Source of the DNA: Abditibacteriota bacterium
GTDB lineage: Bacteria > Armatimonadota > UBA5829
NCBI GenBank assembly: GCA_017445025.1
Contig: JAFSVJ010000028.1
Coordinates: forward strand, 95,752-159,751
Direction of reading: 5' to 3'
Length of the DNA: 64,000 nucleotides
This document shows, piece by piece, positions 2,318-57,695 of the stretch; within the stretch, counting starts at the first letter, position 1; every line of letters begins with the position of its first letter. The notes below the pieces were generated by a model. The model ran no database searches. It was given only the letters and a program-made list of their open reading frames with translations, and was not told the origin of the DNA. The translations under genes were made by a program, and so were the position numbers.

Positions 2318-3352
2318 TCACTTCTTATACTCGCTTGGAATTAGTTTGGGCTTTATTATTTTGTTATATTCTATTAAAGGTTTGTTTTCAATTAAAGCAT
2401 TTAATAATTCTATAGCTTCTCTTCCCACTTTGTATAAATCAAATTCCAGTCTTGAAATTTTATATTCTTCATTATAGTTTTGGTGAGCATGAGATTGGGT
2501 GATTATAGGTGTGTCTTTAAAAATATTGGGATAATCTCTAAAATATTCTGATGTAATATCAAACAAGTTATTATCCGTAAAAACTATCAAATCCGGTTTG
2601 GTTTTTATTGTATCAAGAATTTCTATAATTTCTCCTTCACCTTTATCTTTTTTTGAAATATAATTAATTCTGTAAAGACTATACTTTTCAAATATAATTG
2701 CTTCAAGGTGAAAAGGATAACAATCAAAGATTCTGTCAACATCTTCATCAAGTGGGTTTATGGTAAAAACCAGAACATTTTGAGCATTCATCTTATTTAT
2801 TTGATTTATTATTTCTTTATATAAATAAATATAATCTAATGAAACAGTTGGGTAAGGAAGATTATTAAATCTTAAAATATCCACTATAGGAATATCCAAC
2901 GACGCTATATATTGTAGATCCTTTAGCTCTGCACTTAGTGAAATTGCTCCGTCTATTTCGTTTTTAAAAGGACCTACAGAAGTTTCAATATCAAGAATAT
3001 CATTAGCAATAAAATACAAAGGAGTATAACCTTTGTCAATAATATATTTATTTAAAATCTTACAAAAAAACCTGTATAGTTTTTTTGTATCTCCTTTTGT
3101 TGAATAGGTTGTGGATACAATAAGAATATACTTTTTCTTTTCATTATTTTTTGCAACAAATGTTCCGCTACCTCTTATTCTTTTGATAATTCCTTCTTGT
3201 TCTAAATCTGTAAAGGCACTTCTTATGGTATTCCTGTTAACATTAAGTGTTTCTGCAAGAAGAACTTCACTAATCAGTTTGTCTCCGTATTTTAAGTTAT
3301 TTTCTTTTATATGATTATTAATATAATCTATTATTTGTTGTTTTTTTGTCAT
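2318..3352 (-). CDS. GntR-family transcriptional regulator with a C-terminal periplasmic-binding-protein-like (sugar-binding) domain; paralog 1.
   Basis: N-terminal winged helix-turn-helix motif 'YGDKLISEVLLAETLNVNRNTIRSAFTDLEQEGIIKRIRGSGTFVA'. Start placed at the internal 'MTKKQQ' preceded by GGAAGG. About 60% identical to the product of 8269..9309. Confidence 0.75.
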   Translation of the reverse strand: MTKKQQIIDYINNHIKENNLKYGDKLISEVLLAETLNVNRNTIRSAFTDLEQEGIIKRIRGSGTFVAKNNEKKKYILIVSTTYSTKGDTKKLYRFFCKILNKYIIDKGYTPLYFIANDILDIETSVGPFKNEIDGAISLSAELKDLQYIASLDIPIVDILRFNNLPYPTVSLDYIYLYKEIINQINKMNAQNVLVFTINPLDEDVDRIFDCYPFHLEAIIFEKYSLYRINYISKKDKGEGEIIEILDTIKTKPDLIVFTDNNLFDITSEYFRDYPNIFKDTPIITQSHAHQNYNEEYKISRLEFDLYKVGREAIELLNALIENKPLIEYNKIIKPKLIPSEYKK

Positions 3353-3476
3353 TTTTATTATCCTTCCCAATTTATTATATAACAAATCAACAAAGAAAGT
3401 CAACTTTAAAAATAATTAGTCTATACAACTTTTTTGTAAAAGATAGATTTTTTAGATTTTTTCTATAAAAATTCTA

Positions 3477-3506
3477 TTGACTTTATTTGTTTGATTATGG
3501 TATAAT
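3477..3506 (+). promoter_or_regulatory. Sigma70-type promoter for pilin-like gene 1: -35 TTGACT at 3477-3482, an 18-nt spacer, and an extended -10 TGGTATAAT at 3498-3506.
   Basis: Consensus hexamers with the TGn extension. The same 'TGGTATAATATAA' occurs upstream of the paralog at 9455. Confidence 0.6.
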
Positions 3507-3529
3507 ATAAATGTAAAAGCATAGTCCGG

Positions 3530-3558
3530 TAAATAATTAGTGTATACTTTTTTATTTA
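3530..3558. promoter_or_regulatory. Candidate operator: palindrome TAAATAA-N15-TTATTTA with a central GTATAC, lying between the -10 and the ribosome-binding site of pilin-like gene 1.
   Basis: Dyad symmetry read directly from the sequence. Analogous dyads occur at the same position in the two paralogous modules. Confidence 0.45.
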
Positions 3559-3596
3559 TCAGTTTATGTAAAAATATATTTAGGAGGAACATAAAA

Positions 3597-4376
3597 ATGT
3601 TCAAAAGAGGATTTACCCTTATAGAATTGTTGGTGGTTATCGCTATAATCGCCATTCTTGCTGCAATTCTATTTCCCGTTTTTGCCCAAGCAAGAGAAAA
3701 AGCCCGAGCCGCCAGTTGTCTGTCCAATGTAAAGCAGTTGGGAACAGCCCTTCAGCTTTATATTGATGACTACGACGAAACCCTTCCAGTTGGTTATGAT
3801 CCGGCCAGACCCACAACTAACTTGAGTGCCGATTATAACAACTATCCGGCTAAGTGTTTCCCATATATGTTCGCACAGGGATTGCAAGCTGAGATACATT
3901 ATTGGACTTGGATGGATTCCATATTCCCTTATGTTAAAAACGTAAAGTTATATACTTGTCCCTCATCCGGTAATATTAAAATCAATAATGTTTATACTTG
4001 CGGCTATGGATTTAACTACAAATTCACCGAATATTTACCAACAGGGGCTCCACAAGTAATTGCCTATGGTTCACTAAACAATCCATCTAAAAAAGTGTTC
4101 CTTGCTGATACTCAAGTTTCAACTGCAGGTTGGACAGACTTTATTATATGTCCTTACACTATGAGAATAAGAAAAAACGAAGGTGCAATAGCTTGGGTTG
4201 TAGGAATTCCTTCTATAAGACATAACGATGGAGCAAATTACACTTTCTGTGATGGTCATGCTAAGTTCTATAAAAGAAATGCTGGACCGACAGAGACAGT
4301 TATTGTTAACGGAACAGAAGCCAATAACTCTAATTACTGGGGTAATGGCGTTGATTGGTGGGATCCGGCTGCATAA
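3597..4376 (+). CDS. Secreted protein with a prepilin-type N-terminal cleavage/methylation domain and a C-terminal H-X9-DG motif (PVC-group pseudopilin-like family); paralog 1.
   Basis: '[32 protein letters not shown]' is a class III signal/prepilin N-terminus. '[17 protein letters not shown]' gives H-X9-DG. Strong ribosome-binding site AGGAGG. Confidence 0.8.
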
Positions 4377-4383
4377 TATCCAT

Positions 4384-4441
4384 CCCCCCGTCATTTGCCT
4401 TTGGCAAATGCCACCCCCCAAAGCTTCGCTTTAGGGGGACA
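4384..4441 (+). repeat. C/G-clamped double-hairpin intergenic element (CCCCCCGTCA-hairpin-CCACCCCCCA-hairpin-AGGGGGACA), copy 1.
   Basis: Five copies in the window (4384, 11759, 19885, 46173, 47782), all in the same orientation, with compensatory base changes in the stems. Confidence 0.7.
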
Positions 4442-4449
4442 GGTTCAGT

Positions 4450-4483
4450 GCCTCTTTTTTTAAGAGGCATTTTATTTTTTTTT
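4450..4483 (+). terminator. Rho-independent terminator (GCCTC-N9-GAGGC followed by a T-run) after pilin-like gene 1.
   Basis: Hairpin followed by a T-tract. Confidence 0.6.
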
Positions 4484-4731: not shown

Positions 4732-7700
4732 ATGAAATTTTTATTAACTTTTATTTTTGTATTTTTCTCAATATGTGTATTTGCCGGTGAAGTTGATATA
4801 GAAATACCAAAAAGTAAAAAACCGGTCAAACAAGGAGTTGTGACGGAATTTTCCGATGCTGTGGTTATAGATCATTTTAACACTCAAAACTATCTTTTTG
4901 AAGGGGAACCTAAAACACAATTATATCTAAAATATGATGATAATAACTTATACGCTCTGTTTATATGTTATGAAAACCAAAAAGGTTATCCAAAGGCTTT
5001 TAACAGAGAAGAAAATCTAATGATTGATGATGCTGTTCAAATAGTTTTAGGTTTATCAGCGGAAGAAAGTGCTCGGGGCAGTTTAAATATGGGGGGATAT
5101 GAAGGAGCATATAGTGAAATAAGTCCTTGCGATTTTTATTATCAATTTACAGTAAACAGTGAAAACTCTAAAACCAGAGATTATTTGGAAATGCATCTTG
5201 ACAGGCCTTTATTTGACAGTAAAATCAAAAAAGAAAATAATCGGTGGCTTGCTTTAATGACAATACCTTTTAAATCTTGGGGAGTAAAAAAACCGGATGG
5301 TTTAAGCTTTTACTTTAATGCTTATAGAAGTCGTCCACCCGAAACATTTGGTTATAAAAACTATTCCTATGGTGGTTATAGACCTATGTCATTTGCCAGA
5401 GCAAAATTTACATCAGAACCTTCATTAAATAATACATTTACCCAAAAAGAAACCAAAAAAGAAAACATAATAGATGATTTTTCTTTGAGATATTATCCCA
5501 CTGCCAAACAGATTTGTTCTCAAGCATTAATGAGTAATACAAATCAAAATTTTTATCTTATTATGGAAAGTGATAAATTTGAAACTATTAAAAATGAAAT
5601 AAAAGCCGGAAAACAAACAAATTTAGCTTTTAATATAGGTGATAACCCTAATTTACCTATAAATGTTAAGGCAAAGATTATATCTTCAGCCGGAACAGTT
5701 TTAAAAGAAGATAGTTTAACAGTAGAAAGCACTCCGGAAATGCCTGAGTATCTAAATTTTGAATTTGGAGAAGGTATTATTCCAAAACCTTGGACAAAAC
5801 CTGTAATTAAAGGTAATACCATAAAACTTCTTAACAAAGATATTGTTATAGGAAAAGGTGGTTTTTTTGCTTCTGTAACAGGTAAAGGCGAACTTCTTGC
5901 CGGAGATATGAACCTAATTATAAATATAAACGGAAAACCTGTCCCATTAGAACTGATTAATCAAGATATTAAAGAATATGGCAGAGGAGTTTTAGTAACC
6001 AGTAAATATAAATGCCATAATGGAACTTTTGATATAAAATTAAAGATAGATTTTGACGGCTTTACGCAAGTAAAAATGAGATCTGCGGATATTGAACCGG
6101 ATATACTCTCCAAACTCAGCTTAAATGTGCCTCTTAAAAGAGAAAATGCCTTATTTGTAAACAGAAGCAATGTTCAAAGAACCGTTAAAATTGATAAATT
6201 CGGTTGGCATGGGGATTGTGATGGATATATGTGGGTCGGATGCCACGAATGTGGCTTGGGATACGAATACGATCAATTTAACTCGACCTTTGCCGAAAAA
6301 AAGAGAAACAATATTGAAATAATAAATGATAAAGATATAAGTTTATTAAAACTAAATTTTATTGATGAAAAAGGTCAAATAAAAGAAAAAGGTCACGTTT
6401 TTGTTTTTTATCTGACACCAACCCCTACAAAAGATTATTCTTTGAATAAACATGGTTTATATCATGGTGTGGAATTGTGGTTTGAAACTTGGAGCGATTG
6501 GCAAGGATATTTTGATTTTGCCAAACTTCCGCAAATAAAGGAAAGAGTGGAAAACGCAGAAAAGAAAGGAAATGATTTTGCTATTTATTTTTCTCAATGT
6601 TTAGCAGAAGATTCACCCGCATCACAATTATATTTCAATGATTTGACAGCTTTCCCTAAAGCAAATATGTATCAAAGGGCTTACGAAAATATTCCGGGAA
6701 AAGGGGTACCTTGTTATTTAAGTTGTGTTAGGGAACTTTTTGGAGATTTAATATTATATGGAATAGATAAAGCTGTCAAAGAAGCTGGCTTATCTTGCAT
6801 TTATATGGACGGTCCTTCTCTTCCTTGGGCTTGTCAAAACCCAAGTCACAATCACTGTGATTCAAATGTCTATGATATTTGGGAAGATGATTATCTCTAT
6901 CCTTATGAAAAAACAAGAGATTTTTTAATTAAAATGAGAAATATCCTATCTCAAAGCGGAAAACCAATTACTATGGTAGCCCATACCGGTGGGGGTATAT
7001 CTCCGGGAACCATGAGTTTATGTGATAATTTCTTTGAAGGAGAACAAGTTTCAAGATATAAACAAGGCTATAATATTCCGCAAAATATTTTTTCTGTAGG
7101 ATATAGCGGTACTCCTTGGGGAATGAGGCATGAGATTATAATATCTCCAAATATTAACAATGATAAAAAGTTAAGAGCATTGTGTTTATTGCACGATTCA
7201 ACCTGTGCACCATATAAAGATTCTTATGACCTTGAAAATAAAATATATAAAGATTTTCAAAATGATAAAGAAACTGAGTTTTATCCCTATTGGCGTAAGC
7301 AGGATAAAATAAATTATGAGGGCAAATCTCTTATGACTTATTATCTAAATAAGGATAAAGCTTTAGTGGTATTCGGAAATTTGACTTTTTATAATGATAC
7401 AATTAAGTGTGATTTATCTAAATTATTAGGAGAAAGAGCGGTCGCTATTGACGGAGATGATGATAGTATTATATACGATGATGTTAAAAATATATCATTT
7501 AATATAGCGCCAAATCACTATAAAATACTAATGGTTTATAAAGATAAAAGTTTAGTAAATCAAACCAAGGAAACAATCAAAAAAAACATTATAAAAGAAA
7601 AACAAGAAGAATATAAATATGAAAATTCTACCACAGGTTGGAAAGCTAATATTGGAGATCCCGGAAATGCAGGCGAGATTTTAGATAATAATATAACCAT

Positions 7701-8121
7701 AAATACTACTCTTCAAAAAGCTGAAGGAATTATTGAATTTGAGAAAAATATAGATAATTTCTTTGGTGAGTTTGAAATAGAAAGAGTGGGACCTATAAGT
7801 ATAAACATTGGTCCTTCAAGAGTTTTAATTGCCAATAAGACAGTTAAGTTAGAAACAGTTGATGATTGGAACAATGGTATTATTATAAGTAATGATTTTG
7901 ATGAAATAACCCATTTAAATGTTAAATTATCAATTAATAACAATGAAATGGATGTAATTATTAATGATAAAGTGGTTTGTTATAATGTTATGCCAAAACT
8001 TGATAAAGATATAAATAAAATATCATTTAGAACATGGGCAGATTCATATATAATATTTAAACCTATATTGGTGACTAATAACGAAACAGACCTAATACCA
8101 CAAGTTCACCCTGTGCTGTAA
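4732..8121 (+). CDS. Large secreted protein (1129 aa) of unknown function, possibly a carbohydrate-active enzyme given its neighbours.
   Basis: Signal peptide 'MKFLLTFIFVFFSICVFA'. Long ORF with no overlapping alternative. No family recognised. Confidence 0.5.
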   Translation: MKFLLTFIFVFFSICVFAGEVDIEIPKSKKPVKQGVVTEFSDAVVIDHFNTQNYLFEGEPKTQLYLKYDDNNLYALFICYENQKGYPKAFNREENLMIDDAVQIVLGLSAEESARGSLNMGGYEGAYSEISPCDFYYQFTVNSENSKTRDYLEMHLDRPLFDSKIKKENNRWLALMTIPFKSWGVKKPDGLSFYFNAYRSRPPETFGYKNYSYGGYRPMSFARAKFTSEPSLNNTFTQKETKKENIIDDFSLRYYPTAKQICSQALMSNTNQNFYLIMESDKFETIKNEIKAGKQTNLAFNIGDNPNLPINVKAKIISSAGTVLKEDSLTVESTPEMPEYLNFEFGEGIIPKPWTKPVIKGNTIKLLNKDIVIGKGGFFASVTGKGELLAGDMNLIININGKPVPLELINQDIKEYGRGVLVTSKYKCHNGTFDIKLKIDFDGFTQVKMRSADIEPDILSKLSLNVPLKRENALFVNRSNVQRTVKIDKFGWHGDCDGYMWVGCHECGLGYEYDQFNSTFAEKKRNNIEIINDKDISLLKLNFIDEKGQIKEKGHVFVFYLTPTPTKDYSLNKHGLYHGVELWFETWSDWQGYFDFAKLPQIKERVENAEKKGNDFAIYFSQCLAEDSPASQLYFNDLTAFPKANMYQRAYENIPGKGVPCYLSCVRELFGDLILYGIDKAVKEAGLSCIYMDGPSLPWACQNPSHNHCDSNVYDIWEDDYLYPYEKTRDFLIKMRNILSQSGKPITMVAHTGGGISPGTMSLCDNFFEGEQVSRYKQGYNIPQNIFSVGYSGTPWGMRHEIIISPNINNDKKLRALCLLHDSTCAPYKDSYDLENKIYKDFQNDKETEFYPYWRKQDKINYEGKSLMTYYLNKDKALVVFGNLTFYNDTIKCDLSKLLGERAVAIDGDDDSIIYDDVKNISFNIAPNHYKILMVYKDKSLVNQTKETIKKNIIKEKQEEYKYENSTTGWKANIGDPGNAGEILDNNITINTTLQKAEGIIEFEKNIDNFFGEFEIERVGPISINIGPSRVLIANKTVKLETVDDWNNGIIISNDFDEITHLNVKLSINNNEMDVIINDKVVCYNVMPKLDKDINKISFRTWADSYIIFKPILVTNNETDLIPQVHPVL

Positions 8122-8156
8122 AATAAAGCATAATTAACAATACACAATGCACAATT

Positions 8157-8195
8157 GTCCCCCACTAAATACTATCTAATACATAGGTGGGGGAC
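8157..8195. terminator. Stem-loop (GTCCCCCAC-N21-GTGGGGGAC) between the convergent genes 4732..8121 and 8269..9309.
   Basis: 9-bp GC-rich inverted repeat. There is no clear T-tract, so it may act bidirectionally or only as a structural element. Confidence 0.35.
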
Positions 8196-8268
8196 TTACT
8201 GTTAACCATAGCTTGCCTTAACAGTAAGATCCGGCAAAAATATTATGCATTCATCATTAAATTAAGCA

Positions 8269-9309
8269 TTATTCATTATTCTTATACTCGCTTGGGATTA
8301 GTTTGTGTTTTATTATTTTGTTATACTCTATTAAAGGTTTATTTTGAATTATACCCTCTAATAACTCCATAGTCGCCCTTCCCATTTCATATAAATCAAA
8401 TTCCAGTCTTGTAATATTATACTTACCTGTATAGCTCCAATTTATATTTGAATGAGTTATAATAGGAGTATCTTTAAATATATGAGGATAATCATCAAAA
8501 TATTCTGATGTTATCTTGAACAAATTATCGTCCAAAAACACTACCATATCAGGCTTTTCTTTTATGTTATCCAATATATTTACTATTTCTTCTTCACCAT
8601 TATCTTCACTTTGACCATAACTTATACGATTGTTATTGTAATCACTAAATATAAAATCTTCCAACTGAAAGGGATAACTGCTGTATACATTGCTAACACT
8701 ATCTTTTCTCAAAGCCAAAGAAAATATCAAAACATTAGTGCAACCGTTTCTTTTGATTATTTTTATTATCTCTTCATGAAAATAACTAAAATCAAAGGTG
8801 ACCAAGGGATAAGGGGTTGGCAAGACACCTAAAACATCTACAATGGGTATATTGTTTGACGCAATATAATCTAAATCTTCCACTCTGCCCGCTAATGAAA
8901 TAACTCCTGCAATCTCATATTTATATGTCTCTATTAAAGTTTTAATATCTATCATTTTATTGGAAATAAAATATATAGGTGTATAATTTCTGTCAATAAT
9001 ATACTTATTTAATATTTTAAAGAAGAATCTAAAGATTTTCTTTATATCTCCTTGAGTTGCGTAATCTGTGGAAACTATAAAAATATACTTTTTTTCCTTA
9101 TTCTTCAGTGCCACAAATGTGCCTCTGCCATGCTCTCTATCTATAATCCCTTCTTTTTCAAGATCAGCATAAGCTATTCTAACGGTTCCCCTACTGATTT
9201 TTAATTCTTCCGCAAGGAGAGTTTCACTTATTATTTTATCTCCGTATTTTAAATTATTGTCTTTAATATAATCTTTTATATACTTAATTATTTCTTCTCT
9301 TTTGGTCAT
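8269..9309 (-). CDS. GntR-family transcriptional regulator with a sugar-binding-like C-terminal domain; paralog 2.
   Basis: 'YGDKIISETLLAEELKISRGTVRIAYADLEKEGIIDREHGRGTFVA'. Ribosome-binding site AGAGGTGA. Confidence 0.75.
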   Translation of the reverse strand: MTKREEIIKYIKDYIKDNNLKYGDKIISETLLAEELKISRGTVRIAYADLEKEGIIDREHGRGTFVALKNKEKKYIFIVSTDYATQGDIKKIFRFFFKILNKYIIDRNYTPIYFISNKMIDIKTLIETYKYEIAGVISLAGRVEDLDYIASNNIPIVDVLGVLPTPYPLVTFDFSYFHEEIIKIIKRNGCTNVLIFSLALRKDSVSNVYSSYPFQLEDFIFSDYNNNRISYGQSEDNGEEEIVNILDNIKEKPDMVVFLDDNLFKITSEYFDDYPHIFKDTPIITHSNINWSYTGKYNITRLEFDLYEMGRATMELLEGIIQNKPLIEYNKIIKHKLIPSEYKNNE

Positions 9310-9434
9310 ATTTCACCTCTGTCAATTATATTATAATATAAAAACACATTAAAAAGCAATTTATTAAAAAATAGGTATAAACAAGTTTTTTCAAAAAAAT
9401 GAGTTTCAATAATATTTTATATATAAGATCTCCT

Positions 9435-9463
9435 TGACATTTATAATTTAAATATGGTATAAT
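9435..9463 (+). promoter_or_regulatory. Sigma70-type promoter for pilin-like gene 2: -35 TTGACA at 9435-9440, a 17-nt spacer, and an extended -10 TGGTATAAT at 9455-9463.
   Basis: Consensus hexamers with the TGn extension. Confidence 0.65.
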
Positions 9464-9486
9464 ATAATTGATAAAGAAAAATCCAA

Positions 9487-9518
9487 ACAATTAATAGGTA
9501 TATACAAGTTAATTGTTT
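9487..9518. promoter_or_regulatory. Candidate operator palindrome AACAATTAA-TAGGTATATACAAG-TTAATTGTT between the -10 and the ribosome-binding site of pilin-like gene 2.
   Basis: 9-bp perfect arms; the centre contains the palindrome GTATATAC. Confidence 0.5.
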
Positions 9519-9546
9519 AGATTAAAAATTTAGGAGGAACATTACC

Positions 9547-10242
9547 ATGTTCAAAAAAGGATTTACCCTTATAGAATTGTTGGTTGTAATAGCAATTATA
9601 GCCATTCTTGCTGCAATTCTATTCCCCGTTTTCGCTCAAGCAAGAGAAAAGGCCAGACAAACCAGTTGTTTGTCAAATTGTAAACAAATAGGAACAGCGC
9701 TTCAACTTTATGTTGATGACTATGATGAAACTGTTCCGTTAATGTGGTACAACAGCAACCCATTTCCAACAGATAATTCATATCCTTGCTGTATGTTTAC
9801 CACAATGGATTTTATCTATGGCGGTCCAGCACTATGGACTACTTGGATGGATGCTATATTTCCTTATGTAAAGAATAGAAATATATTTATTTGTCCTTCC
9901 GGAGGAAAAAATCTTGCAGGTTATGGTTATAATGGTAATTTAGTTGGTGGTTATACTGTATGGACACAGGAAAACGCAAAGCCTATCAATCTCGCTCAAA
10001 TCAATAACTCTTCTCAATTAACATTTATTGGGGATACTCTCCAAGGTGGAACTTATAGTGCTATGCCTTTATCTTCTGCTTTAATTTATGCTTATAAGAA
10101 AAATATTAATAGGCATATTAGTGGTATGAATTGGACATTTTGTGATAGTCATGCTAAATACTATAAAGATTCAGCAGGACCGGCCTCTGCACCTAACGAC
10201 TGGATTTGTGCAGGAAATGTTTGGTGGGACCCTGCTGCTTAA
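9547..10242 (+). CDS. Prepilin-type N-terminal cleavage/methylation plus H-X9-D(S/G) protein; paralog 2.
   Basis: '[38 protein letters not shown]'. The C-terminal '[17 protein letters not shown]' gives H-X9-DS. Confidence 0.8.
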
Positions 10243-10352: not shown

Positions 10353-11657
10353 ATGAAAATTTTACTGAACATATTCTTATTAGTTCTACTCACGGGAATG
10401 TTATTGGCTCAAAACAACAGTGCATATATATCAGATGTATATTCAAAACAAGTTCCTCACATAGATAAAAACGGGAATATCCTAACAAAATATGACGAAA
10501 AGAAATCCTTTTTCCCTATTGCAATGTGGGGAGTACCTACATCCGAGGAAGTCTATGGCAAAACCTATAATTGGAACATATTAAAAAAAGCGGGCTACAA
10601 TACAGTTTGGCCCTGGCCCTCAGAAAACAGAGTTGCACAGTTAGACAAAGGAGCTGAATATGGCTTTCAAGTTGTCCTTATGAACCCCATAAGCGACGAA
10701 TCCCTTCCCTTAATTAATAATCATCCTAATCTTTTGGGAAACTGTTGGAGAGACGAACCTATAGGTCAATTAGGCCCTAAAATGCAAAGTATTTTTGATG
10801 ATTTTACTCAATATAAAGATAAAGCCAAGAAATTAGCTCCAAAACTAAAAGTTTTTGTTAACGATGCACCTTGGATAACAGAACCCGCCACAGAATGGTG
10901 GATCAAGTGGAACAAGGCGGGAGACATCTCTTGTCACGATTCCTATCCTGTTTACAACAAAGACGGAGAAGCCGCAAGATCTTTGGGAACAGGCATCAAT
11001 ATGCCGGCATCTATGAACTTGGCTGTATCTTCTACCGATGAAAAAATGCCTGTTTGGCTTATAGTGGGAGCCTTTACCCAACCTAATGAATACGGTAACA
11101 GTTATCCTTTCAGACACCCTACCCCCAACCAACTTCGTTCCTGTGTTTATACAGCTATAGAACATGGTGCTACAGGAATAACCTACTTTATATGGGACAG
11201 CTATATTTCAAGAGAAGGTCAGTGTATAGGTATGTCACCGGATCCTCAAACAGATATGGGAAACGGAGATTCCAAATATGTAATAGCCAAGCCCATTGAT
11301 TTAATAAATGCAAAAGCTAATTGGGAAATGGCTACTCAAATCAACAGAGAACTTAAGGAACTTGCTCCTATCATCTTAACTCCCACTGATACAAAAACTC
11401 AGTTTACAGTTAAAATTACAGGAAAAGGGGTAACGGAGCAACCTATTCACTGTATGCTTAAAAAAGACCCGGAAGGTGGCTGGATACTCTTTACAACCAA
11501 TATAGACGCTTCTTTCTTAAAGGTGGAATATACTTTTATGACATCTATCACAGAAGCAAAGGCTTTGTATGAAAACCAAAAGCCTTTAACAGTTGAAAAC
11601 GATACATTTTCTCTGTCATACGAACCCTTTGAAACACATATAATAAAGATAAAATAA
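10353..11657 (+). CDS. Secreted protein; first of a tandem pair of paralogs. Possible TIM-barrel glycoside hydrolase ('GNCWRDEPIG', 'HGATGITYFIWDS').
   Basis: Signal peptide present. Roughly 45% identical to the product of 11902..13254. Possible NEP-like acid/base motif 'DEP'. Confidence 0.45.
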   Translation: MKILLNIFLLVLLTGMLLAQNNSAYISDVYSKQVPHIDKNGNILTKYDEKKSFFPIAMWGVPTSEEVYGKTYNWNILKKAGYNTVWPWPSENRVAQLDKGAEYGFQVVLMNPISDESLPLINNHPNLLGNCWRDEPIGQLGPKMQSIFDDFTQYKDKAKKLAPKLKVFVNDAPWITEPATEWWIKWNKAGDISCHDSYPVYNKDGEAARSLGTGINMPASMNLAVSSTDEKMPVWLIVGAFTQPNEYGNSYPFRHPTPNQLRSCVYTAIEHGATGITYFIWDSYISREGQCIGMSPDPQTDMGNGDSKYVIAKPIDLINAKANWEMATQINRELKELAPIILTPTDTKTQFTVKITGKGVTEQPIHCMLKKDPEGGWILFTTNIDASFLKVEYTFMTSITEAKALYENQKPLTVENDTFSLSYEPFETHIIKIK

Positions 11658-11758
11658 AAACAAAAAGCAAATCTTAAATATGAAATAAAGAATATAAAAC
11701 AAAAAATAAAAAATATGTCTATCAACTATAAGAAAATCTTAGGTTAAAGGAATTTCCA

Positions 11759-11816
11759 CCCCCCCGTCATTTGCCTTTGGCAAATGACACCCCCCAATCT
11801 TACGATTAGGGGGACA
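11759..11816 (+). repeat. C/G-clamped double-hairpin element, copy 2.
   Basis: CCCCCCGTCATTTGCCTTTGGCAAATGACACCCCCCAATCTTACGATTAGGGGGACAG. Confidence 0.7.
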
Positions 11817-11901
11817 GATTTTACATTTTCTATTTTATATTTTCTATTTAAAAATAATTTTGTGATGACAAAGCATAAACAAAGAAATTCAAGGACAGAT
11901 T

Positions 11902-13254
11902 ATGAAAATACTACTTTATTTATTAATATTTTTAATCTCAGTTTCATCTATTTTAGCTGATGAATTTGAAACTTTGAGAAAAAATCAAAGAAATTTCAAC
12001 AGCATTCAGTTAATATATCAAGACGGTGTCCCTCACACAGACAAAACCGGCAACATTCTAATGGAATATGACAAAGAAAAATCTTTTTTTACCATTGCAG
12101 CTTGGGGTGTTCCTCTGCACGGTGAGCAATTGGGAGAGACTTATGACTGGCAACTCCTAAAAGACGCCGGATTTAACACTGTATGGCCCTATCCTATTTA
12201 CCCTATAGATAAACAGATAGAAGCTTTTGAGAAATTTGATATGCAAGGAATTATTTTACACCCTATAAATGATGAAGATTTGCTCAAAACCATAGGAAAC
12301 AGTCACATACTGGGTAATTGCTTTAAAGACGAGCCAATAGGCCTTGTAGGCTCATATTATGAAGATAATACGCCAAAATCAGATAAAATTTTTAAAGACT
12401 ATTTGGACTACAAAGCTCACGCTCAAGAAATCAATCCCAATCTAAAGATCTTTGTAAATGATTGCACCTGGAACACAGAACCAGCCACAAGTTGGTGGGT
12501 TAAGTGGAACACTGCAGGAGACATTCAATGTCAAGACGCCTATCCCATTACTTTGGATGAAGAAGGAGCTACAAGAACCTTAGCTCACAATAATATAGAC
12601 CTACCTAATTCGGTAGCTTGGGCTACAGCTATAAACAAAGAACAAAAACCTGTATGGCTTATTGTAGGTCCCTTCTCTCAAGTAGATAATTACGGTGGTG
12701 GTTCCTGTTTCAGGTGGCCTACTCCAAACCAACTCCGCTCTTGTGTTTATGCGGGAATTGAACACGGTGCAACAGGAATAATCTATTTTATATGGGACAG
12801 TTTCATATCAAGGGAAGGACGAGTTATAGGTATGAGCCCTAATCCTAAGGTTAAAATGGCTGAAGCAGATAAATATGTGGTAGCTAAGCCTCAAGACCTT
12901 GTAAACTCAAAAGCTATGTGGGAAACCACCAAACAGATAAACAAAGAGCTTAAGGAACTTGCTCCCTACATTCTGTCAAAAACTGTCAAAGAAAAAACTT
13001 ATAGTGTAAAGATAGAAGGCAAATTTATAAGCCCCAACGGTTTAAGATGTCTTCTAAAACAGGACGGAGAAGGTGGATATATTTTGTTTGCCACAAATAT
13101 AGACGCAGCTTGGCTACAAGCAGAATTTACTTTTGAAAAAGAGTTTTTATTAGCGGAAACCATGTTTGAAGACGGAAAGATTTTAGGCAAAGCCGACAAA
13201 GTCTTCAAAGCTGATTTTGACCCCTTTGAAACACATATAATACATATAAGATAA
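11902..13254 (+). CDS. Secreted protein; second of the tandem paralog pair. Possible glycoside hydrolase.
   Basis: 'GNCFKDEPIG', 'NQLRSCVYAGIEHGATGIIYFIWDS'; paralog of 10353..11657. Confidence 0.45.
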   Translation: MKILLYLLIFLISVSSILADEFETLRKNQRNFNSIQLIYQDGVPHTDKTGNILMEYDKEKSFFTIAAWGVPLHGEQLGETYDWQLLKDAGFNTVWPYPIYPIDKQIEAFEKFDMQGIILHPINDEDLLKTIGNSHILGNCFKDEPIGLVGSYYEDNTPKSDKIFKDYLDYKAHAQEINPNLKIFVNDCTWNTEPATSWWVKWNTAGDIQCQDAYPITLDEEGATRTLAHNNIDLPNSVAWATAINKEQKPVWLIVGPFSQVDNYGGGSCFRWPTPNQLRSCVYAGIEHGATGIIYFIWDSFISREGRVIGMSPNPKVKMAEADKYVVAKPQDLVNSKAMWETTKQINKELKELAPYILSKTVKEKTYSVKIEGKFISPNGLRCLLKQDGEGGYILFATNIDAAWLQAEFTFEKEFLLAETMFEDGKILGKADKVFKADFDPFETHIIHIR

Positions 13255-14689: not shown

Positions 14690-15240
14690 ATAAATGCACA
14701 ATATACCCCCCACGATGAAAAACTTTTTGTTTTTCATCGTTGCCCCCCTCGGGGGGCAAAAGGGTTTTCCCTTTAACTTTGGATATGTTTATAAATTTAC
14801 GCTCTTAATAATAAGAAAATTTCCCTTTACCTCCCTTTTTTCCTATGGCTCTTTTTGAGCAAATCCAAAATCTTGAGACTTATTTATAAACACCTTTTTT
14901 GGTAGTATATTTTATTCTCTGTCTTCGAATGTTCATAAAATACACCACCAAAAAAGATGTTATGTAATAGGCTTATCTAAATTTTAATTTCGTATTTGCT
15001 CAAATTCCAAGGGCTCCCGAAAAGTCGTAGCGTAGCAAGACTTTTTGGGAATGGAAAAATAACCATAACAAAAAAAGGGGCGTTCCTTAATTTAAAGGCT
15101 GGCTTCGGTTAATTGACTCTTTAATCACGGGAAATAAGAGCAAGAAGGGAAACTTGAGCCTCCTTTAAGTAGAATTCACACCTCTTGCAAATTCACATAA
15201 AAATAGAGCAAAACTATTCACAATATATTAGGTTATTATT

Positions 15241-17926: not shown

Positions 17927-18091
17927 ATTTCTATGCTTTAAAATTAGTTTTTATTGGTTAGAACAAGTAAAATTTCCTTACATAACCATATATATTATAC
18001 TCAAAAAAAAAAAAAACGCAAGTTTTAAGACATAAATGGTGAAAAAAATAAAAAAATTTCATTTCGGGGCAAATAAAAAGCAAAAATAGAT

Positions 18092-18166
18092 AATCAAAAA
18101 TCAAAGTCGTGGTGCTATGCACCACGTATTTCTGCTTTTTACTTTTATTTTTTGATTTGTGATTTA
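18092..18166. repeat. AATCAAAAATCAAAGTC + GTGGTGCTATGCACCAC hairpin + TTTGATTTGTGATTT element.
   Basis: Member of the family listed at 13296. Confidence 0.5.
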
Positions 18167-18244: not shown

Positions 18245-19845
18245 TTTTTATAAAGAATCACCCCCCTAACGCAGTGCGACAACTGTTTTTTTTCGGACAA
18301 TTACATAAAGATTTGTTTAGTTAGTGGGTAAGACTTTAAATTTCGCGCCATAAGTGCTTTTTAGATTGTAGATTGTTGAACAAAAAAAGCCTTTTGTTTA
18401 CGGAAATCTAAAACCTTACGTAATCACTTTAGACATCAGTCTTTAATACCGAAATCGTTTAGGTTCTTTATCATTATTATGACTAAAACAGAAATTTATC
18501 TCCGGAATTTCCATTTCTGTTCCTTCATAATACTTTGAATACATTTGGAATGTAGTCATATTAGTGTTTGTATATTTTCGTTCATAATTATAATAATGCA
18601 TCCATTCTTCTATTCCTTTATTGAACACTTCAAGTGTTTCAAACTGGCGTTGATTATAAAACTCATCTCTAAGAACGTGATAAAATTGTTCAATAAAGGG
18701 ATTATCTGTGCTTTTATAGGGACGGCTGTGACTTTGCTTTAAACCTAATTTCTCTAAATAATTATGAAAGCCATAAGTGCGATATATTCCCGCTCTATCT
18801 GAATGAAATATACCATCGGTGATCTTAAAAGGTAAAGCTTTTTCTAATAGTTTTAGGGTTTCATTTGCCAGATCGGAATTTTCATGAAATGAAGTGTGAA
18901 AACATATTATCATACGGGAATAATAATCCATAACACAAGATACTTTTATTATGCCAAAGCTATATTCCAACTTAATAACATCGGTGCAAAAGTATCTTAA
19001 AGGTTCATTTGCTCTAAAACCTGTTTTAATTAATCGTTCACATGCCGGCATCCTATCTTTTGTTAAGGATTTATTCTTGCAGCGACTCTCTTTTTTGGTT
19101 AAAAGCAGTCCTTCTTTTTTGGCAATTTTATAGACCTTTTCTTTATAAGTTTTAATACCATAGTCTTCGTAAAGAATAGAAACTAAAGCTTTGCAACCAC
19201 GATATATCTTTCTACGTTCTCGTATATCATGTAAAGCTAAACGAATCTTTTCGTCAATCGGATCTTGTGGCTTTTCCTCTTTAGGCTTATCGTTATCATA
19301 AAAGGTAGAACTTGGTATTTTAGTATGTTTAAACAACATTGTTTTTGTAAAAAATTCTTGATATAAATTGACTATAAAAACCTTAACATCATTTTTTATC
19401 TTTGTCTTTTTTTTTTCAAGAACATTAAATGCTGTGTTAACACAAAGCTCACAATCTAAATCTTTTATGATTTCAATTAATTCTTTTTGGGATTTATTTT
19501 CTAATTGTTTAAGATCAATGGGTTTTCTAAATTCAGCTTCATTTTTCTTTTTTTCTTTGTTAAAAAAGCTCATTGGACCTTTATCCTTATATTGACTAAC
19601 CCAAGAACGAATTGTTTTTCCGCCAGGCTTAGTTTGATTGGGAAGCAATTTTCTTGCAGTTTGCTTAAATGAAAGAAAATGCTCTCTCATATATATTATA
19701 GCATATATTTTGTATTCTGGCGAATAATAAGCCCTCTTTTGTGGCTTTTTTGAGATTTTGCTATCCATTAATTTTCCTCCTATTTGTCCGAAAATTAACA
19801 GATAGCACACGCAGTAGGGGGGGGACTGATTGTCAATCATAGCCA
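18245..19845 (-). mobile_element. Insertion sequence (~1.6 kb) with ~40-bp imperfect terminal inverted repeats (TTGTCCGAAAA..CAG…GC..TAGGGGGG.TGATT) at 18250-18310 and 19780-19840.
   Basis: The inverted repeats were found by comparing the reverse complement of the left end with the right end. A transposase ORF lies between them. Confidence 0.65.
18443..19768 (-). CDS. DDE transposase with an rve/integrase core (IS3/IS481 superfamily), encoded as a single ORF.
   Basis: 'HSDRAGIY' and 'SRPYKSTDNPFIEQFY' match the rve catalytic-core signatures (HSDRG…, SR.G…DNA..E). N-terminal helix-turn-helix. Start placed at the internal 'MDSKISKK' so that the CDS lies inside the right inverted repeat. Confidence 0.75.
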   Translation of the reverse strand: MDSKISKKPQKRAYYSPEYKIYAIIYMREHFLSFKQTARKLLPNQTKPGGKTIRSWVSQYKDKGPMSFFNKEKKKNEAEFRKPIDLKQLENKSQKELIEIIKDLDCELCVNTAFNVLEKKKTKIKNDVKVFIVNLYQEFFTKTMLFKHTKIPSSTFYDNDKPKEEKPQDPIDEKIRLALHDIRERRKIYRGCKALVSILYEDYGIKTYKEKVYKIAKKEGLLLTKKESRCKNKSLTKDRMPACERLIKTGFRANEPLRYFCTDVIKLEYSFGIIKVSCVMDYYSRMIICFHTSFHENSDLANETLKLLEKALPFKITDGIFHSDRAGIYRTYGFHNYLEKLGLKQSHSRPYKSTDNPFIEQFYHVLRDEFYNQRQFETLEVFNKGIEEWMHYYNYERKYTNTNMTTFQMYSKYYEGTEMEIPEINFCFSHNNDKEPKRFRY

Positions 19846-23054: not shown

Positions 23055-23271
23055 AAACAAAAAAATACAAATCATCCAAAAGCACAATTTTTTATAAGCA
23101 ATTTTGAGTGTAGTCGTCGACTGTAGACTCGCAGAATAAGGTTATTTTTAAAGGCAAAAGCCATTTAAAAATGTCCTTAGGCGAGAATCGTCAAGGAGAC
23201 ACGAAACGAAAAAGTGCGTTAAATAAAAAATTAGGGATTTTGAGAGGAGTTGTGATTTTATGTTTTTAATA
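23055..23271 (+). mobile_element. MITE-like element (~217 bp, degenerate ends) inserted at the mannosidase/SDR gene junction and flanked by ~70-bp direct repeats (22987..23054 and 23272..23343).
   Basis: The direct repeats each contain the 3' end of the mannosidase gene plus the 5' end of the SDR gene. The internal sequence is homologous to 4483..4702 and 44695..44909. Confidence 0.7.
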
Positions 23272-26246: not shown

Positions 26247-26441
26247 ATTCAGCCCCCCCACTATGTAAGGGGTTGAATTGCAGCAATCTCGGGGTCCCCA
26301 AAAAGCCCTGCGAATAGCGAAAACAACCCAAGGGATCCCGAAAAGTCGTAGCATAGCAAGACTTTTTGGGAATGGGTTTTAGGGGTGAGAAATAAGCATC
26401 GCTTTTTTGTAAAAACGCCCAAGGCACCCCGTCATTATTAT

Positions 26442-26660
26442 AATCAAAAATAGAAAATCAAAAATCAAAATTGAAAGTGCTAACCTTTAAGAGCAACTGA
26501 AAAGTTAAGAGCCGGCTAATTGGATTATTAATTATTAATTTTAAAAATAGGGGGCGAACCGGCGTGCAAATTTAAAAAGGCGTCTATAAAGCTTAGAGCC
26601 CACCAACATAAGTGGTGCGTAGCACCACGAATTTTGATTTTCTATTTTTGATTTTTGATT
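26442..26660. mobile_element. MITE-like element with ~30-bp terminal inverted repeats (AATCAAAAATAGAAAATCAAAAATCAAAATT / AATTTTGATTTTCTATTTTTGATTTTTGATT) enclosing ~155 bp that includes a GTGGTGCGTAGCACCAC hairpin. The right inverted repeat overlaps the last codons of hydE.
   Basis: Inverted repeats verified by reverse complement. The internal segment 'GCTAACCTTTAAGAGCAACTGAAAAGTTAAGAGCCG' is shared with 46240-46275. Confidence 0.6.
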
Positions 26661-27685
26661 ATATTTCTTGCGTGGCCTTGATCTATAGATACTTGACGAT
26701 TGCAAGAAATTATAAGATCTTTAATTGTAGATAAGATTGTATCCGTGTTTTCGGAGATACACTTTTTTCCGGGGTAAATTTCATATAATATCTTATACTT
26801 TTGAGGAGTAAAGTTAATCATAATAACATCACATCCCACGCTCAAACCTTTCTTATAACCTTCATTACCTATGGTTGCAAGGGCTGTGGTTGCAGGCATA
26901 AGAGCGGTTTTTGTTATTATTCTCACCAGTGCCAACATTTTAAGAGTCAAAAAAACATCTCCGTTAGGCTCACCCTTAAAAGGTGTATGTTCATGCATAA
27001 CATAAGGACCTATTCCCACCATTTCAGGTTTGAAATCTCTTATAAACTCCAAATCTTCAGCCAAATATTCTGTCTTCTGTCCCGGAGAGCCCACCATACA
27101 CCCTACCCCGGTTTGATAACCTAATTTTTTTAAATTTCTCAAACATTCAAGCCTTGTGTCCAAAACTCCGTCAGGGTGCAAATATTTATAATGTTCCTTG
27201 TTGGCGGTTTCATGTCTCAACAGATACCTGTTAGCTCCGGCCTCTTTCCAAAGCTTATAAGTTTCAAAAGAATGTTCCCCAAGGCTTAAAGTCACAGCCA
27301 TATCAGTGTTAGATTTTATTTCCCTTATTAAATCTGCCAAATCAAAAGGATTATAGGTCTTGCTTTCCCCACCTTGCATAACTAAGGTTTTTACACCTTT
27401 TTTATCCATATCAAGAGCAATTGAATATATCTCCTCTATGGGCATTTTATACCTTTGAACAAGATCATTATTTGCCCTTACACCGCAATAATTACAATTA
27501 CGAGCACATATATTGCTTATTTCCAACAAACCTCTTATTTGAACCTTTTCACCACAATAATCCTTTCTTATTTTATCGGAAAGACTAAATAAAGAAACAG
27601 CCTCATCCGAATTTAAAGACAAGGCCTCTATTAAGTCATTTTTGGTATAATTATTTGATTTTATTTTATTTAGTAAATTATTCAT
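26642..27685 (-). CDS. hydE: Radical SAM protein of the BioB/HydE type, likely the [FeFe]-hydrogenase maturase HydE.
   Basis: 'CARNCNYCGVRANND' radical-SAM Cx3Cx2C motif. About 350 aa. Adjacent to a HydG-like gene. Confidence 0.55.
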   Translation of the reverse strand: MNNLLNKIKSNNYTKNDLIEALSLNSDEAVSLFSLSDKIRKDYCGEKVQIRGLLEISNICARNCNYCGVRANNDLVQRYKMPIEEIYSIALDMDKKGVKTLVMQGGESKTYNPFDLADLIREIKSNTDMAVTLSLGEHSFETYKLWKEAGANRYLLRHETANKEHYKYLHPDGVLDTRLECLRNLKKLGYQTGVGCMVGSPGQKTEYLAEDLEFIRDFKPEMVGIGPYVMHEHTPFKGEPNGDVFLTLKMLALVRIITKTALMPATTALATIGNEGYKKGLSVGCDVIMINFTPQKYKILYEIYPGKKCISENTDTILSTIKDLIISCNRQVSIDQGHARNIIKNQK

Positions 27686-28023
27686 TGGAATGATTATTAT
27701 TTCCTTATAAATCCAAGAGAACTTATTCTAAATCTTGTAAAGCCAACTGTAAACCTTAATTGCTCCTATACTAAGTAGGGCAAAAGTTAGTAGACTTTTT
27801 GGGATTTACAAAACTGCTTCACCCTCTTTGAACTGAATTTGCTTTCGCAAATTCATTTCAAGGAGGGGGACCACAAGGCGTAAGCCATTGTGGTGGGTGG
27901 TCAGGAATAAATTTGCATAGAATTGCAAATTTATGATAGAAGCATAATAATATAACAGAGCAACCACATTTGAAGACGGTGGGTGGTCAGGAGTAAAAAT
28001 AGCTAAACTGCAAATTTTACGAT

Positions 28024-36592: not shown

Positions 36593-36634
36593 AATGTTTT
36601 TTATTTGATTTTCTGCTTTCTGTTTTAATATTTA

Positions 36635-37348
36635 TTAATTATCCTTCGGAGAGATTATAACATGTCTCTCCATGCCTTCGCCTTCTGAGTAAGTTTTAAC
36701 ACCCTCATAATTGCGAAGAGCCATGTGAACAATTCGTCTGTCATTGGCACTTTGAGGCTCCATAACAGCTTCTCGTCCGTGCTTAACTACCATTTCAGCT
36801 ATCTTTAAAGCCCTTTCTTGTAATTCTTTGGTTCTCTTGGCTCTGTGACCGTCGGCATCAATTACTATTCTTCTTTTACAAGGGTATTTCTTATTGGCAA
36901 TAATACAGGCAAGATATTGAAGAGAATCCAAAGTTGCACCAAATTTACCGATTAATATTGCTATATCTTCACCCACTATGTTAAAAGCAATACGGTCTTC
37001 TGTCACAGTATCAATAATCAAATTAACCTTGATACCCATTAGTTCAATGGTTTTTTCTATAAACTCTTTAGCTGTGTCAAAGAAAATATCTTCATTTGAT
37101 TCTTCTTCCACCAATACAGGCTTTTCTTCAGGTTCCCCCTCTTCCTTTGTAATGGAAACAGGAGTTGCAGGAGAGGGAGCTTCTTTTTTACTTGCTTCTA
37201 TAACTACTTTGCTTCCTAAACCCAAAAAACCTTTTACTTCTTCTACAACTGAATATTCTATCAAAGAAACGGGAGCACCTAAGGCTTCGCCTGCCGAAGC
37301 AAGTGCGTCCTCAAGATTAGAACCTTCAAATTTTTGTTTTTCGTCCAT
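36635..37348 (-). CDS. jag: Jag/KhpB RNA-binding protein (KH plus R3H domains)
   Basis: R3H motif 'SANDRRIVHMALRNYEGVKTYSEGEG'. Sits in the conserved yidC-jag-mnmE context. Confidence 0.8.
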   Translation of the reverse strand: MDEKQKFEGSNLEDALASAGEALGAPVSLIEYSVVEEVKGFLGLGSKVVIEASKKEAPSPATPVSITKEEGEPEEKPVLVEEESNEDIFFDTAKEFIEKTIELMGIKVNLIIDTVTEDRIAFNIVGEDIAILIGKFGATLDSLQYLACIIANKKYPCKRRIVIDADGHRAKRTKELQERALKIAEMVVKHGREAVMEPQSANDRRIVHMALRNYEGVKTYSEGEGMERHVIISPKDN

Positions 37349-37369
37349 TTATTTAATCCTTATACAAGT

Positions 37370-38581: not shown

Positions 38582-38689
38582 TAAATAACCTTATAATATA
38601 ATTCTTAACATATCCATGTAAAAGTTTGGGAAAGGGCACTTGTTATTTACCATTTTTAAATAGATTTGCTACGCAAATCATTTTTCTTC

Positions 38690-38960: not shown

Positions 38961-39088
38961 ACTAAAGTATCTATCCACCATAGCCCACCTTAAAAATTAG
39001 GGCCCGGTAACCTAAGTGGTGCGAACCACCACAAGTTTGATTTTCTATTTTTTGATTATTGATTTTAAATTTGCCATTGGCAAATTTA

Positions 39089-44909: not shown

Positions 44910-44912
44910 TTA

Positions 44913-46130: not shown

Positions 46131-46147
46131 ATTATAATCAAATACAG

Positions 46148-51411: not shown

Positions 51412-51423
51412 GCGAAAGAAAAT

Positions 51424-56735: not shown

Positions 56736-56782
56736 AATATTTCTCCTTTTCTAATTATATTATAACATATTTAAACATAATA

Positions 56783-57664: not shown

Positions 57665-57695
57665 TTTTTTACCTCTCTCATTTTCCTACTTGTAT

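Follow-up and report, generated by a model that had tools for sequence, protein, structure and literature searches.

The 64,000-nt stretch analysed here, referred to as the window, comes from an Abditibacteriota bacterium (assembly GCA_017445025.1, contig JAFSVJ010000028.1, positions 95,752 to 159,751) and carries in several of its intergenic regions a short element made of two adjacent hairpins. One copy, at 4384-4441, lies immediately behind the TAA stop codon (4374-4376) of a DUF1559/N-methyl gene and is followed by an intrinsic-terminator-like hairpin and T-run at 4449-4483. We describe the element, the family of copies to which it belongs and a group of genes for small DUF559 proteins that are bracketed by such copies on other contigs (contigs and loci outside the window are designated L with a number). 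A covariance model built from 30 copies scored the members in the window as follows:

4376-4444, + strand: canonical copy 1, A-type, 73.4 bits
4376-4383: leader of copy 1, followed by its C-run (4384-4389) and CGTC tag (4389-4392)
4393-4399/4403-4409: stem of hairpin 1 of copy 1, with loop 4400-4402 and tail GCCA 4410-4413
4414-4438: hairpin 2 of copy 1, with the mismatch C4419·A4433 and loop 4425-4427; the trailer ACA follows at 4439-4441
11752-11819, + strand: canonical copy 2, A-type, 84 bits
19877-19939, + strand: canonical copy 3, A-type, 63.7 bits
47774-47844, + strand: canonical copy 4, subfamily III, 66.9 bits
46164-46242, + strand: doubtful member, the "46173 variant", 12.7 bits, E about 0.1-0.2 (0.13-0.23)

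The conserved blocks of the canonical copies lie at 4384, 11759, 19885 and 47782. An earlier examination of this DNA, the sequence-only reading, had described the core, and the conserved unit proved to be longer than that, with a leader aATTCCATCC and a trailer ACAGAt. Positions 4384-4441 read CCCCCCGTCA TTTGCC TTT GGCAAA TGCCA CCCCCC AAAGC TTC GCTTT A GGGGG ACA. A search with the pattern CCCCGTCA-N-CCCCCA-N-GGGACA returned four matches in the window, exactly the canonical copies, vs. 0.00 expected from 100 dinucleotide-preserving shuffles, and no further canonical copy was found there by the covariance model, even when its filters were switched off. The element has a GC content of 51-59%, vs. 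34% for the window. Five copies had been reported originally; four of them are canonical, and all are on the + strand. The fifth, the 46173 variant between ribBA and ribH, shares only the canonical termini (TTCCATTCCCCGGTCA ... AAGGGGACAGAT), and its interior forms a single long imperfect hairpin without the middle C-run. Copy 3 also departs from the original description: its 5′ run has five C’s and its hairpin 2 is degenerate (AGAGGG; AAGCGACACTTAGAGGG). Copy 4 has the leader CACTTATTCC, the hairpin-2 core ATTTTGC-TTC-GCAAAAT and the trailer ACACATTTAGCG. An outer stem between the 5′ C-run and the 3′ G-run is possible and is used by the 46173 variant; it was set aside for the family, as its seemingly covarying closing pair is an A-to-G change that lengthens the G-run.

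To evaluate the two hairpins, covariation was measured on a model-fitted alignment of 33 copies, with 500 shuffles and with the pairing partner slid by 1-3 columns as controls. The alignment had been fitted to the structure beforehand; the hairpin cores are nonetheless readable by eye, and every self-complementary core named in the earlier description was found. Standard pairs occupied 87.7% of the cells vs. 73.2% in the shuffles, changes on both sides were present in 9 of 19 pairs, and 77 cells were compensatory vs. 21.5 in the shuffles. None of the 500 shuffles equalled the observed covariation and all measures collapsed when the partner was slid, which bears out the compensatory stem changes originally proposed. 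Both hairpins are real. A T·C mismatch near the base of hairpin 1 is kept in 31 of the 33 copies; it had been described as always present, and copy 2 of the window is one of the two exceptions, with a perfect hairpin 1 (perfect TGAC, tail TGACA). The feature of hairpin 2 that had been taken for a bulged A turned out to be a 1x1 C·A mismatch, invariant in 33 of 33 copies.

Distribution of the pair types is informative with respect to the strand. Among 611 pair cells, 534 were Watson-Crick pairs, 2 were G·T and 40 were C·A, seven of the last being sporadic. On the opposite strand the invariant C·A reads as a T·G (U·G) wobble and the helix is continuous; the minus strand therefore folds better, with -32.8 vs. 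-24.9 kcal/mol for the + strand of copy 1. An RNA selected on the + strand would be expected to show G·U pairs on that strand; these are nearly absent, and the pair types thus point away from such an RNA. When the copies were compared with Rfam (4227 covariance models), only tRNA-Thr reached the gathering score, and the copies themselves gave no match at E<=5. No T-run follows either hairpin on either strand, so the element does not qualify as an intrinsic terminator. Motifs of ribozyme or riboswitch cores were not found in the element, and an integron attC site was rejected: the consensus has no R''/R' cores (RYYYAAC / GTTRRRY) and the window no integrase.

The sequence-only reading had interpreted the element as a transcribed, orientation-locked cis-acting RNA structure, acting from the + strand of untranslated regions in mRNA stability, processing or protein binding. 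Indeed, every window copy (5/5, or all four if the doubtful one is left aside) is co-oriented with flanking + strand genes, and copy 1, situated between a stop codon and a terminator-like hairpin, is surely transcribed. We therefore counted orientations for 40 copies from the window and 24 related contigs, using open reading frames (ORFs) of at least 100 aa called greedily. Copies were located between co-directional genes in 21 cases, between convergent genes in four and between divergent genes in one, and this avoidance of divergent (promoter) regions, like the strong covariation, would suit an RNA. Within the co-directional group, 10 copies were on the gene strand and 11 on the opposite one (6 vs. 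11 outside the window), and copies with a single known neighbor were divided into 6 in the same and 8 in the opposite orientation. The bias claimed with respect to genes thus disappeared in the larger sample, and the 5/5 co-orientation in the window is a small-sample effect. The split removes the main argument for a strand-specific RNA role. The original proposal had named the absence of both orientation bias and covariation as the outcome that would speak against it; the former was indeed what we observed, while covariation was strong. Considering in addition that + strand G·T pairs are so rare (2/611, vs. 40 C·A), that the opposite strand folds better, that Rfam gave no match and that copies are tandem, truncated or nested and absent from relatives (see below), as expected of a repeat and not of a regulon, we regard an RNA-level function as improbable.

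Many copies start 0-25 nt from a stop codon, in either orientation, and all of the approximately 40 are positioned outside ORFs or at their very ends. This pattern fits a DNA-level palindromic repeat that is tolerated either way round downstream of genes, and the label "REP-like" (REP, repetitive extragenic palindrome), offered in the earlier description, was a good guess. In two contigs an ORF runs through a copy (L001, ORF 175-1566 with the element at 1422-1490; L009, ORF 479-904 with the element at 523-590); there the element may supply the tail of a protein or extend its N-terminus, as in some REPs and Rickettsia palindromic elements (RPEs), or else the ORF ends may be mis-called.

Other properties of the copies are also those of a repeat. 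Direct tandem copies are present in L004, L006 and L109, truncated units occur (for example CCCCGTCATTATTATAA at position 26427 of the window and in L020), and additional modules consisting of a C-run, GTC and a hairpin were seen in L011 and L022. Blocks of 140-150 nt that contain the element were found beside unrelated genes; copy 2, flanked by two co-directional + strand genes (10353-11657 and 11902-13254), is part of such a composite block of ~150 nt, which recurs among other genes in L007 and L021. Contig L014 is orthologous to 50781-52462 and 54446-55058 of the window (88% and 80% identity); its spacer holds three copies, and the equivalent part of the window holds other repeat families and an extra pgm gene. 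The intergenic regions as a whole form a mosaic of several short repeat families, some of which have the leader AAATTCCA in common.

To determine how far the family extends, metagenome contigs were scanned with the exact pattern, which gave 27 matches on 22 contigs, and the covariance model yielded 33 strong copies; together, the window and ruminant-gut metagenome contigs hold about 40. One ruminant-gut scaffold (L106) is 99.85% identical to 51841-64000 of the window, and the nucleoside hydrolase encoded in the window is 100% identical to a protein of an NCBI Abditibacteriota MAG. Look-ups of the exact proteins of ribH and of ORF 33-896 gave no record. The strict pattern had no match in 185,579 species-representative genomes, and the covariance model none in 1.36 Mb of unrelated genomes. 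Relatives L103-L105, with nucleoside hydrolase 61-72% identical, are devoid of copies and their spacers are short, plain and AT-rich; the ribBA-ribH spacer that accommodates the 46173 variant measures 198 nt in the window vs. 10 nt in L103. A search of genome contigs with RibBA for synteny gave a best match of 64% identity, hence no close relative. The absence of copies from relatives at 61-72% identity indicates that the family is, as judged from these sequences, a recent and lineage-specific expansion. A literature search returned nothing on repeats in Abditibacteriota. In L103 the nucleoside hydrolase gene adjoins a SIR2/STALD gene and a ThsB-TIR gene (7499-9419), a Thoeris-like defence pair, at a position that is occupied in the window by the rib operon, turned the other way.

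We compared the element with known classes of bacterial repeats. Members of the CGTC-tagged REP superfamily have an unpaired CGTC at one end, stems of 8-9 bp with A-T pairs at positions 1 and 2, loops of 4-5 nt and an unpaired tail near CCA, occur mostly as head-to-head dimers and "apparently lack a dedicated transposase" (Di Nocera, De Gregorio and Rocco 2013, PMC3733652). They include dRS3 of Neisseria and RPE-4/6 of Rickettsia, and TGTC and CCTC are listed as variants of the tag (PMC3733652). Hairpin 1 is composed in the same order of CGTC, a stem running from A to T, and GCCA. The tag is present in 33 of 33 copies and the CCA tail, as GCCA or TCCA, in 31 (ACA in the other two); the first pair is A-T in 30 of 33, and the second is T-A in 17 and G-C in 14. 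Common to both groups are further the short loop, heterogeneous stems and loops, an intergenic location in co-directional or convergent contexts, often near stop codons, and the occurrence in mosaics with other repeats. The element differs in its shorter stems (5-8 bp) and loops (mostly 3-4 nt), in a second, C/G-clamped hairpin that is always fused to the first, in a new host phylum, in the bracketed DUF559 genes, and in its arrangement, as copies are solo or head-to-tail (L004, L006, L109) and stand head-to-head only around DUF559 genes. Because of the two size differences and the lack of regular dimers, we classify the element, on its sequence features, as a variant and not a member of the CGTC-tagged REPs. 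As hairpin 2 starts with TGTC on the opposite strand, the whole unit may also be read as a tail-to-tail pair with the ends CGTC...GACA.

General properties of REPs, namely short GC-rich imperfect palindromes in many extragenic copies and both orientations, were all observed. With Neisseria intergenic mosaic elements (NIMEs) and E. coli bacterial interspersed mosaic elements (BIMEs) the family shares a mosaic composition of the intergenic regions, in which short repeat families succeed one another in changing order; it has other modules, combined by other rules, and no alternation of REP and inverted REP. The element is not a BIME in the strict sense, in which REPs and inverted REPs alternate across defined linkers: its hairpins 1 and 2 are unlike each other and always follow head to tail, and where units stand in tandem they are direct repeats. 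A miniature inverted-repeat transposable element is not indicated either, as the flanks are a conserved leader and trailer and no variable target duplication was found.

Similar in organization is the "REPtron" of enterobacteria and pseudomonads, in which REPs or BIMEs are associated with a REP-associated tyrosine transposase (RAYT). Both systems show GC-rich imperfect palindromes with a conserved tag and irregularities, clusters and both orientations, a small nuclease-type gene between inverted copies, and one repeat subfamily per gene variant. Here, the tag is CGTC/TGTC instead of GTAG, the protein is of the PD-(D/E)XK Vsr-like and not the Y1/HUH type, and the unit has unlike ends (A-type and T-type, described below). 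TnpA-REP recognizes the folded single-stranded REP by its conserved tag and stem irregularities, with a non-specific upper stem (PMC8266576). Conservation in the present element is distributed in the same manner, the tag and the irregularities being fixed and the stem tops variable. This recognition scheme, the two imperfect hairpins with conserved mismatches, the conserved 5′ flank and the lack of a target duplication would all suit a miniature IS200/IS605-type derivative (a palindrome-associated transposable element, PATE) or a REP mobilized by a RAYT, its hairpins being recognized as single-stranded DNA by a Y1/HUH transposase. PATEs have left- and right-end hairpins that are alike and are recognized by one TnpA, and their strand is tied to replication. 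Yet, the two hairpins differ in their conserved bases, no GTAG stands beside either of them, and neither a Y1_Tnp domain nor TnpA was detected in the ~60 ORFs scanned in the window and the loci. Moreover, one orientation is kept on both sides of the rnpA-yidC-jag-mnmE cluster (35195-39644, - strand), the copies there all being on the + strand. In many bacteria this cluster adjoins the replication origin; the window contains no dnaA gene and its GC skew has no clear switch, so that the origin was not located and the direction of replication is not established from 64 kb. In the light of these data we consider origin from a Y1/HUH system very improbable.

A different enzyme was suggested by the genes between inverted copies. 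In L006 and L015 (=L107), copies in inverted orientation enclose an ORF of 185-196 aa; the encoded proteins share 61% identity, and both match Pfam DUF559, with E-values of 1e-17 and 2.5e-21. A protein search yielded two more family members, one of which (L109, 64% identical) was on a usable contig. As L109 was found via the protein and not via the element, it carries no selection bias for the latter; one antisense copy is located upstream of its DUF559 gene and two sense copies downstream. Three DUF559 genes with mutual identities of 61-64% are thus each enclosed by inverted copies, whose CGTC ends point toward the gene in 3/3 loci. The upstream copy has an ordinary A-type hairpin 1, and the downstream copy a T-type hairpin 1, CGTC|TTTTTGC-NNN-GCAAAAA|TCCA. 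The T-type was encountered at five places in all data, and four of these are directly downstream of a DUF559 gene. The leader/trailer subfamily differs from gene to gene, each being flanked by its own; copy 4 of the window, between a DUF805 gene and the nucleoside hydrolase gene, belongs to the subfamily that brackets the gene in L109. The DUF559 genes are bracketed non-randomly by inverted copies. In the literature searched, no paper connected DUF559 or YcjD with repeats, which does not prove that none exists.

Residues of catalytic type are conserved in the DUF559 protein. Residues D74, E85, D87 and H91 (P0030 numbering) and several arginines are invariant or nearly so among 20 homologues. 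An AlphaFold model (predicted local distance difference test, pLDDT, 88.5; predicted template modeling score, pTM, 0.80) had its best matches in the catalytic domain of the homing endonuclease I-Bth0305I (3R3P), the N. gonorrhoeae DUF559 protein NGO0050 (3HRL) and E. coli Vsr (1VSR). Vsr nicks 5′ of the T in a T·G mismatch within CTWGG. On its minus strand, hairpin 2 presents the invariant T·G with invariant neighbors, C-T-A over G-G-T, and the likeness of this context to the Vsr site would, as a speculation, make it a recognition or nicking signal. The Vsr, DUF559 and DUF2726 families form one PD-(D/E)XK clade (Steczkiewicz et al., PMC3424549).

To examine whether such flanks occur in other phyla, we inspected seven distant DUF559 genes, about 40-49% identical over the domain: a gene between fusA and tuf on a metagenome contig (L110), one in Phormidium, one on another metagenome contig, and those of N. 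gonorrhoeae, A. lipoferum, S. meliloti and Sphingomonas (sufB-sufC, L116). Inverted G/C-rich hairpin repeats flank 7/7 of them. The 5′ and 3′ flanks of each gene were compared for their longest exact inverted match, which measured 17-52 nt in 8 of 10 DUF559 genes belonging to several phyla and at most 13 nt in a control of 815 random ORFs of similar size. Hairpins flanking DUF559 genes in S. meliloti, Phormidium, Sphingomonas and E. coli resemble hairpin 2 by eye in layout: xGTC precedes a C-rich arm, the loop and a G-rich arm, and a short spacer then leads to a G-rich run. The sequences are not alignable. The T·G mismatch was dropped as a general mark of DUF559-flanking hairpins, having been found in the present element family and Phormidium only; in other phyla the hairpins are mostly perfect. 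Some DUF559 genes interrupt conserved gene pairs (fusA-tuf, L110 3001-3393; sufB-sufC, L116 422-832; also L117, about 400-760), a location typical of selfish insertions.

In E. coli, the DUF559 gene ycjD ends inside a 50-nt C/G-rich palindromic repeat, its reading frame stopping in the loop of the repeat copy (..LSPSPQPSP*), and two more copies precede fabI. In 5,426 complete E. coli genomes, the number of places carrying the repeat ranged from 1 to 29, with a median of 16. From its place at the envM/fabI locus the repeat is tentatively assigned to BoxC. The BoxC family, with 50-56 bp and 22-32 copies (PMC2267715), fits its size and copy number. Like the window element, these BoxC-type repeats are multi-copy and intergenic, adjoin a DUF559 gene and combine xGTC and a hairpin of C-rich and G-rich arms with a short spacer and a G-rich run. 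They differ in that they are not alignable with it, the spacer has no CGTC hairpin and the copies adjacent to ycjD are downstream only.

Taken together, the results make it probable that the element is a non-autonomous, REP/BIME-like DNA repeat specific to this lineage (Abditibacteriota of the ruminant gut), with a DUF559 nuclease as its candidate partner enzyme. The unit would consist of a CGTC-tagged hairpin with a CCA tail (hairpin 1) and a C/G-clamped hairpin 2 that on the other strand offers TGTC and the T·G mismatch. Conserved tags, stem bases and mismatches would be the features recognized by a protein acting on folded DNA, and the variable, always complementary stem tops structural filler. 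Copies would settle either way round and for the most part close behind genes, at sites that tolerate hairpins; effects on mRNA 3′ ends, if any, would be secondary. The partner, to judge from the association, would be the small DUF559 (Vsr-like PD-(D/E)XK) nuclease, and its gene between a 5′ inverted A-type and a 3′ direct T-type copy could be regarded as the analogue of a RAYT gene between REPs. On this view, copying triggered by the nuclease would have spread or maintained non-autonomous derivatives, among them the solo A-type copies of the window.

Several observations weigh against this proposal. No DUF559 homologue is encoded in the 64-kb window; L109 comes from the same sample as L106, and its origin from the same genome as the window is unproven. 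The sample comprises about 40 copies and not a whole genome, and genes on the short contigs are our own greedy ORF calls. Hairpin 1 is outside the stem and loop sizes of the CGTC-tagged REPs, and the T·G mismatch is missing from most DUF559-associated hairpins of other phyla. The association is no proof of an action of the nuclease on the hairpins, and DUF559 genes could simply home into them. In addition, a PD-(D/E)XK nickase is not known to transpose a 60-nt element on its own.

An alternative is that the element spread by another route, such as an unseen transposase or template switching/duplication, and that the DUF559 genes are free-standing homing-type genes that land in, or are insulated by, hairpins. 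It agrees with the homing endonuclease among the closest solved structures and with the DUF559 genes found elsewhere within conserved operons (L110, L116), and an unrelated insertion sequence (IS) of the window likewise resides in a C6/G8 hairpin, so that such hairpins attract insertions. On the other hand, three diverged genes share one architecture of an inverted A-type copy upstream and a direct T-type copy downstream, each is accompanied by its matching subfamily, and the T-type is almost confined to the 3′ flanks of DUF559 genes; these regularities argue for a co-evolving unit over random landing, and we consider separate origins of repeat and gene unlikely.

If the partnership between repeat and nuclease is extended to the other phyla, DUF559/YcjD-type nucleases would be the missing partners of a widespread class of palindromic repeats without GTAG, a suggestion that we put forward tentatively. 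This class may cover the CGTC/TGTC hairpins, the "CCCTCTCCC...GGGAGAGGG" hairpins of alpha-proteobacteria and cyanobacteria and the BoxC-type repeats beside ycjD. REPtron-like units may then consist of an inverted repeat, the nuclease gene and a repeat, with distinct left and right ends, and may have solo copies as their offspring and the T·G mismatch as the nicking signal. As a REP-like repeat of one uncultured bacterium the element is ordinary, and its value lies in the lead to an enzyme. The function of E. coli BoxC has been an open question since the 1990s, and as the layout of a gene between inverted hairpins recurs in several phyla including E. coli (ycjD), the proposal is testable in a model organism. 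It would provide a candidate enzyme for the CGTC repeats, which the 2013 survey left without a transposase (PMC3733652). If it is true, a second and mechanistically different enzyme family (PD-(D/E)XK, not HUH) would take part in the biology of bacterial palindromic repeats.

Besides the canonical copies, two elements of like construction were picked up in the window at lower scores:

59077-59161, - strand: related architecture, different family, 26.1 bits, E 2.5e-5
14698-14761, + strand: weak relative with a like layout, 12.1 bits, E about 0.2-0.3

The former, in a convergent intergenic region, is organized as TTCCTGACC-ACCCACC-[ATTCGC TTT GCGAAT]-GGT-CCCCCC-TCCTTAAA...TTTAAGGAGGG. The latter consists of a C6 run, a hairpin ACGATGAAAAAC/GTTTTTCATCGT and a C6/G6 hairpin TGCCCCCCTCGGGGGGCA.

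A second repeat family in the window, with the hairpin GGGNTCCCGAAAAGTC...GACTTTTTGGGAATGG, is represented at 15000-15054, 26321-26375, 38773-38804, 52456-52546 and 59242-59273. Its 5′ leader, AAATTCCA, is the same as that of the double-hairpin element. Contig L011 has the 3′ half of a second-family hairpin behind a double-hairpin copy, an arrangement suggestive of nested insertion or of competition for one insertion site. More intergenic families were noted at 27891-27935, 27977-28021 and 59144-59188; at 8156-8235; at 26587-26663 and 38991-39067; and at 18073-18104, 26437-26468 and 46131-46162. They include TGGTGGGTGGTCAGGAATA, a GTCCCCCAC..GTGGGGGAC hairpin followed by CTTACTGTTAA..TTAACAGTAAG, a GGTGCG..CACCAC hairpin and an AT-rich block, ATCAAAAATAGAAAATCAAAAATCAA.

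An IS with an rve (DDE) transposase and a GH38 alpha-mannosidase gene flank the divergent region in which copy 3 is situated. This IS (18276-19808) ends in inverted repeats of 25 bp, GCGACAACTGTTTTTTTTCGGACAA / GTGCTATCTGTTAATTTTCGGACAA, and its 7-bp target duplication, ACGCAGT, is at 18269-18275 and 19809-19815. It is inserted in the loop of a different, C6/G8-clamped hairpin, CCCCCCTAACGCAGTAGGGGGGGG, of which L008 has an intact version. The IS was rejected as a parent of the double-hairpin element, since its inverted repeats are unrelated and it generates its own 7-bp duplication.

Two further duplications were observed. A segment of 83 nt around the start of ribBA is repeated with 96% identity directly after ribE (44611-44693 and 44910-44992). 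The duplicates bracket a segment of ~216 nt, of which 44698-44898 is 77% identical to 23061-23260, upstream of a short-chain dehydrogenase gene at 23306; the observation also covers 1141-1178. The arrangement resembles either a mobile promoter-like block or an insertion that produced a long target duplication. Finally, two paralogous divergent modules (2318-3787 and 8269-9737), each consisting of a GntR-family regulator and a DUF1559/N-methyl (pilin-like) protein, share 70-83% nucleotide identity including their promoter region, and a third pair of GntR and DUF1559 genes is located at 56921-58945.

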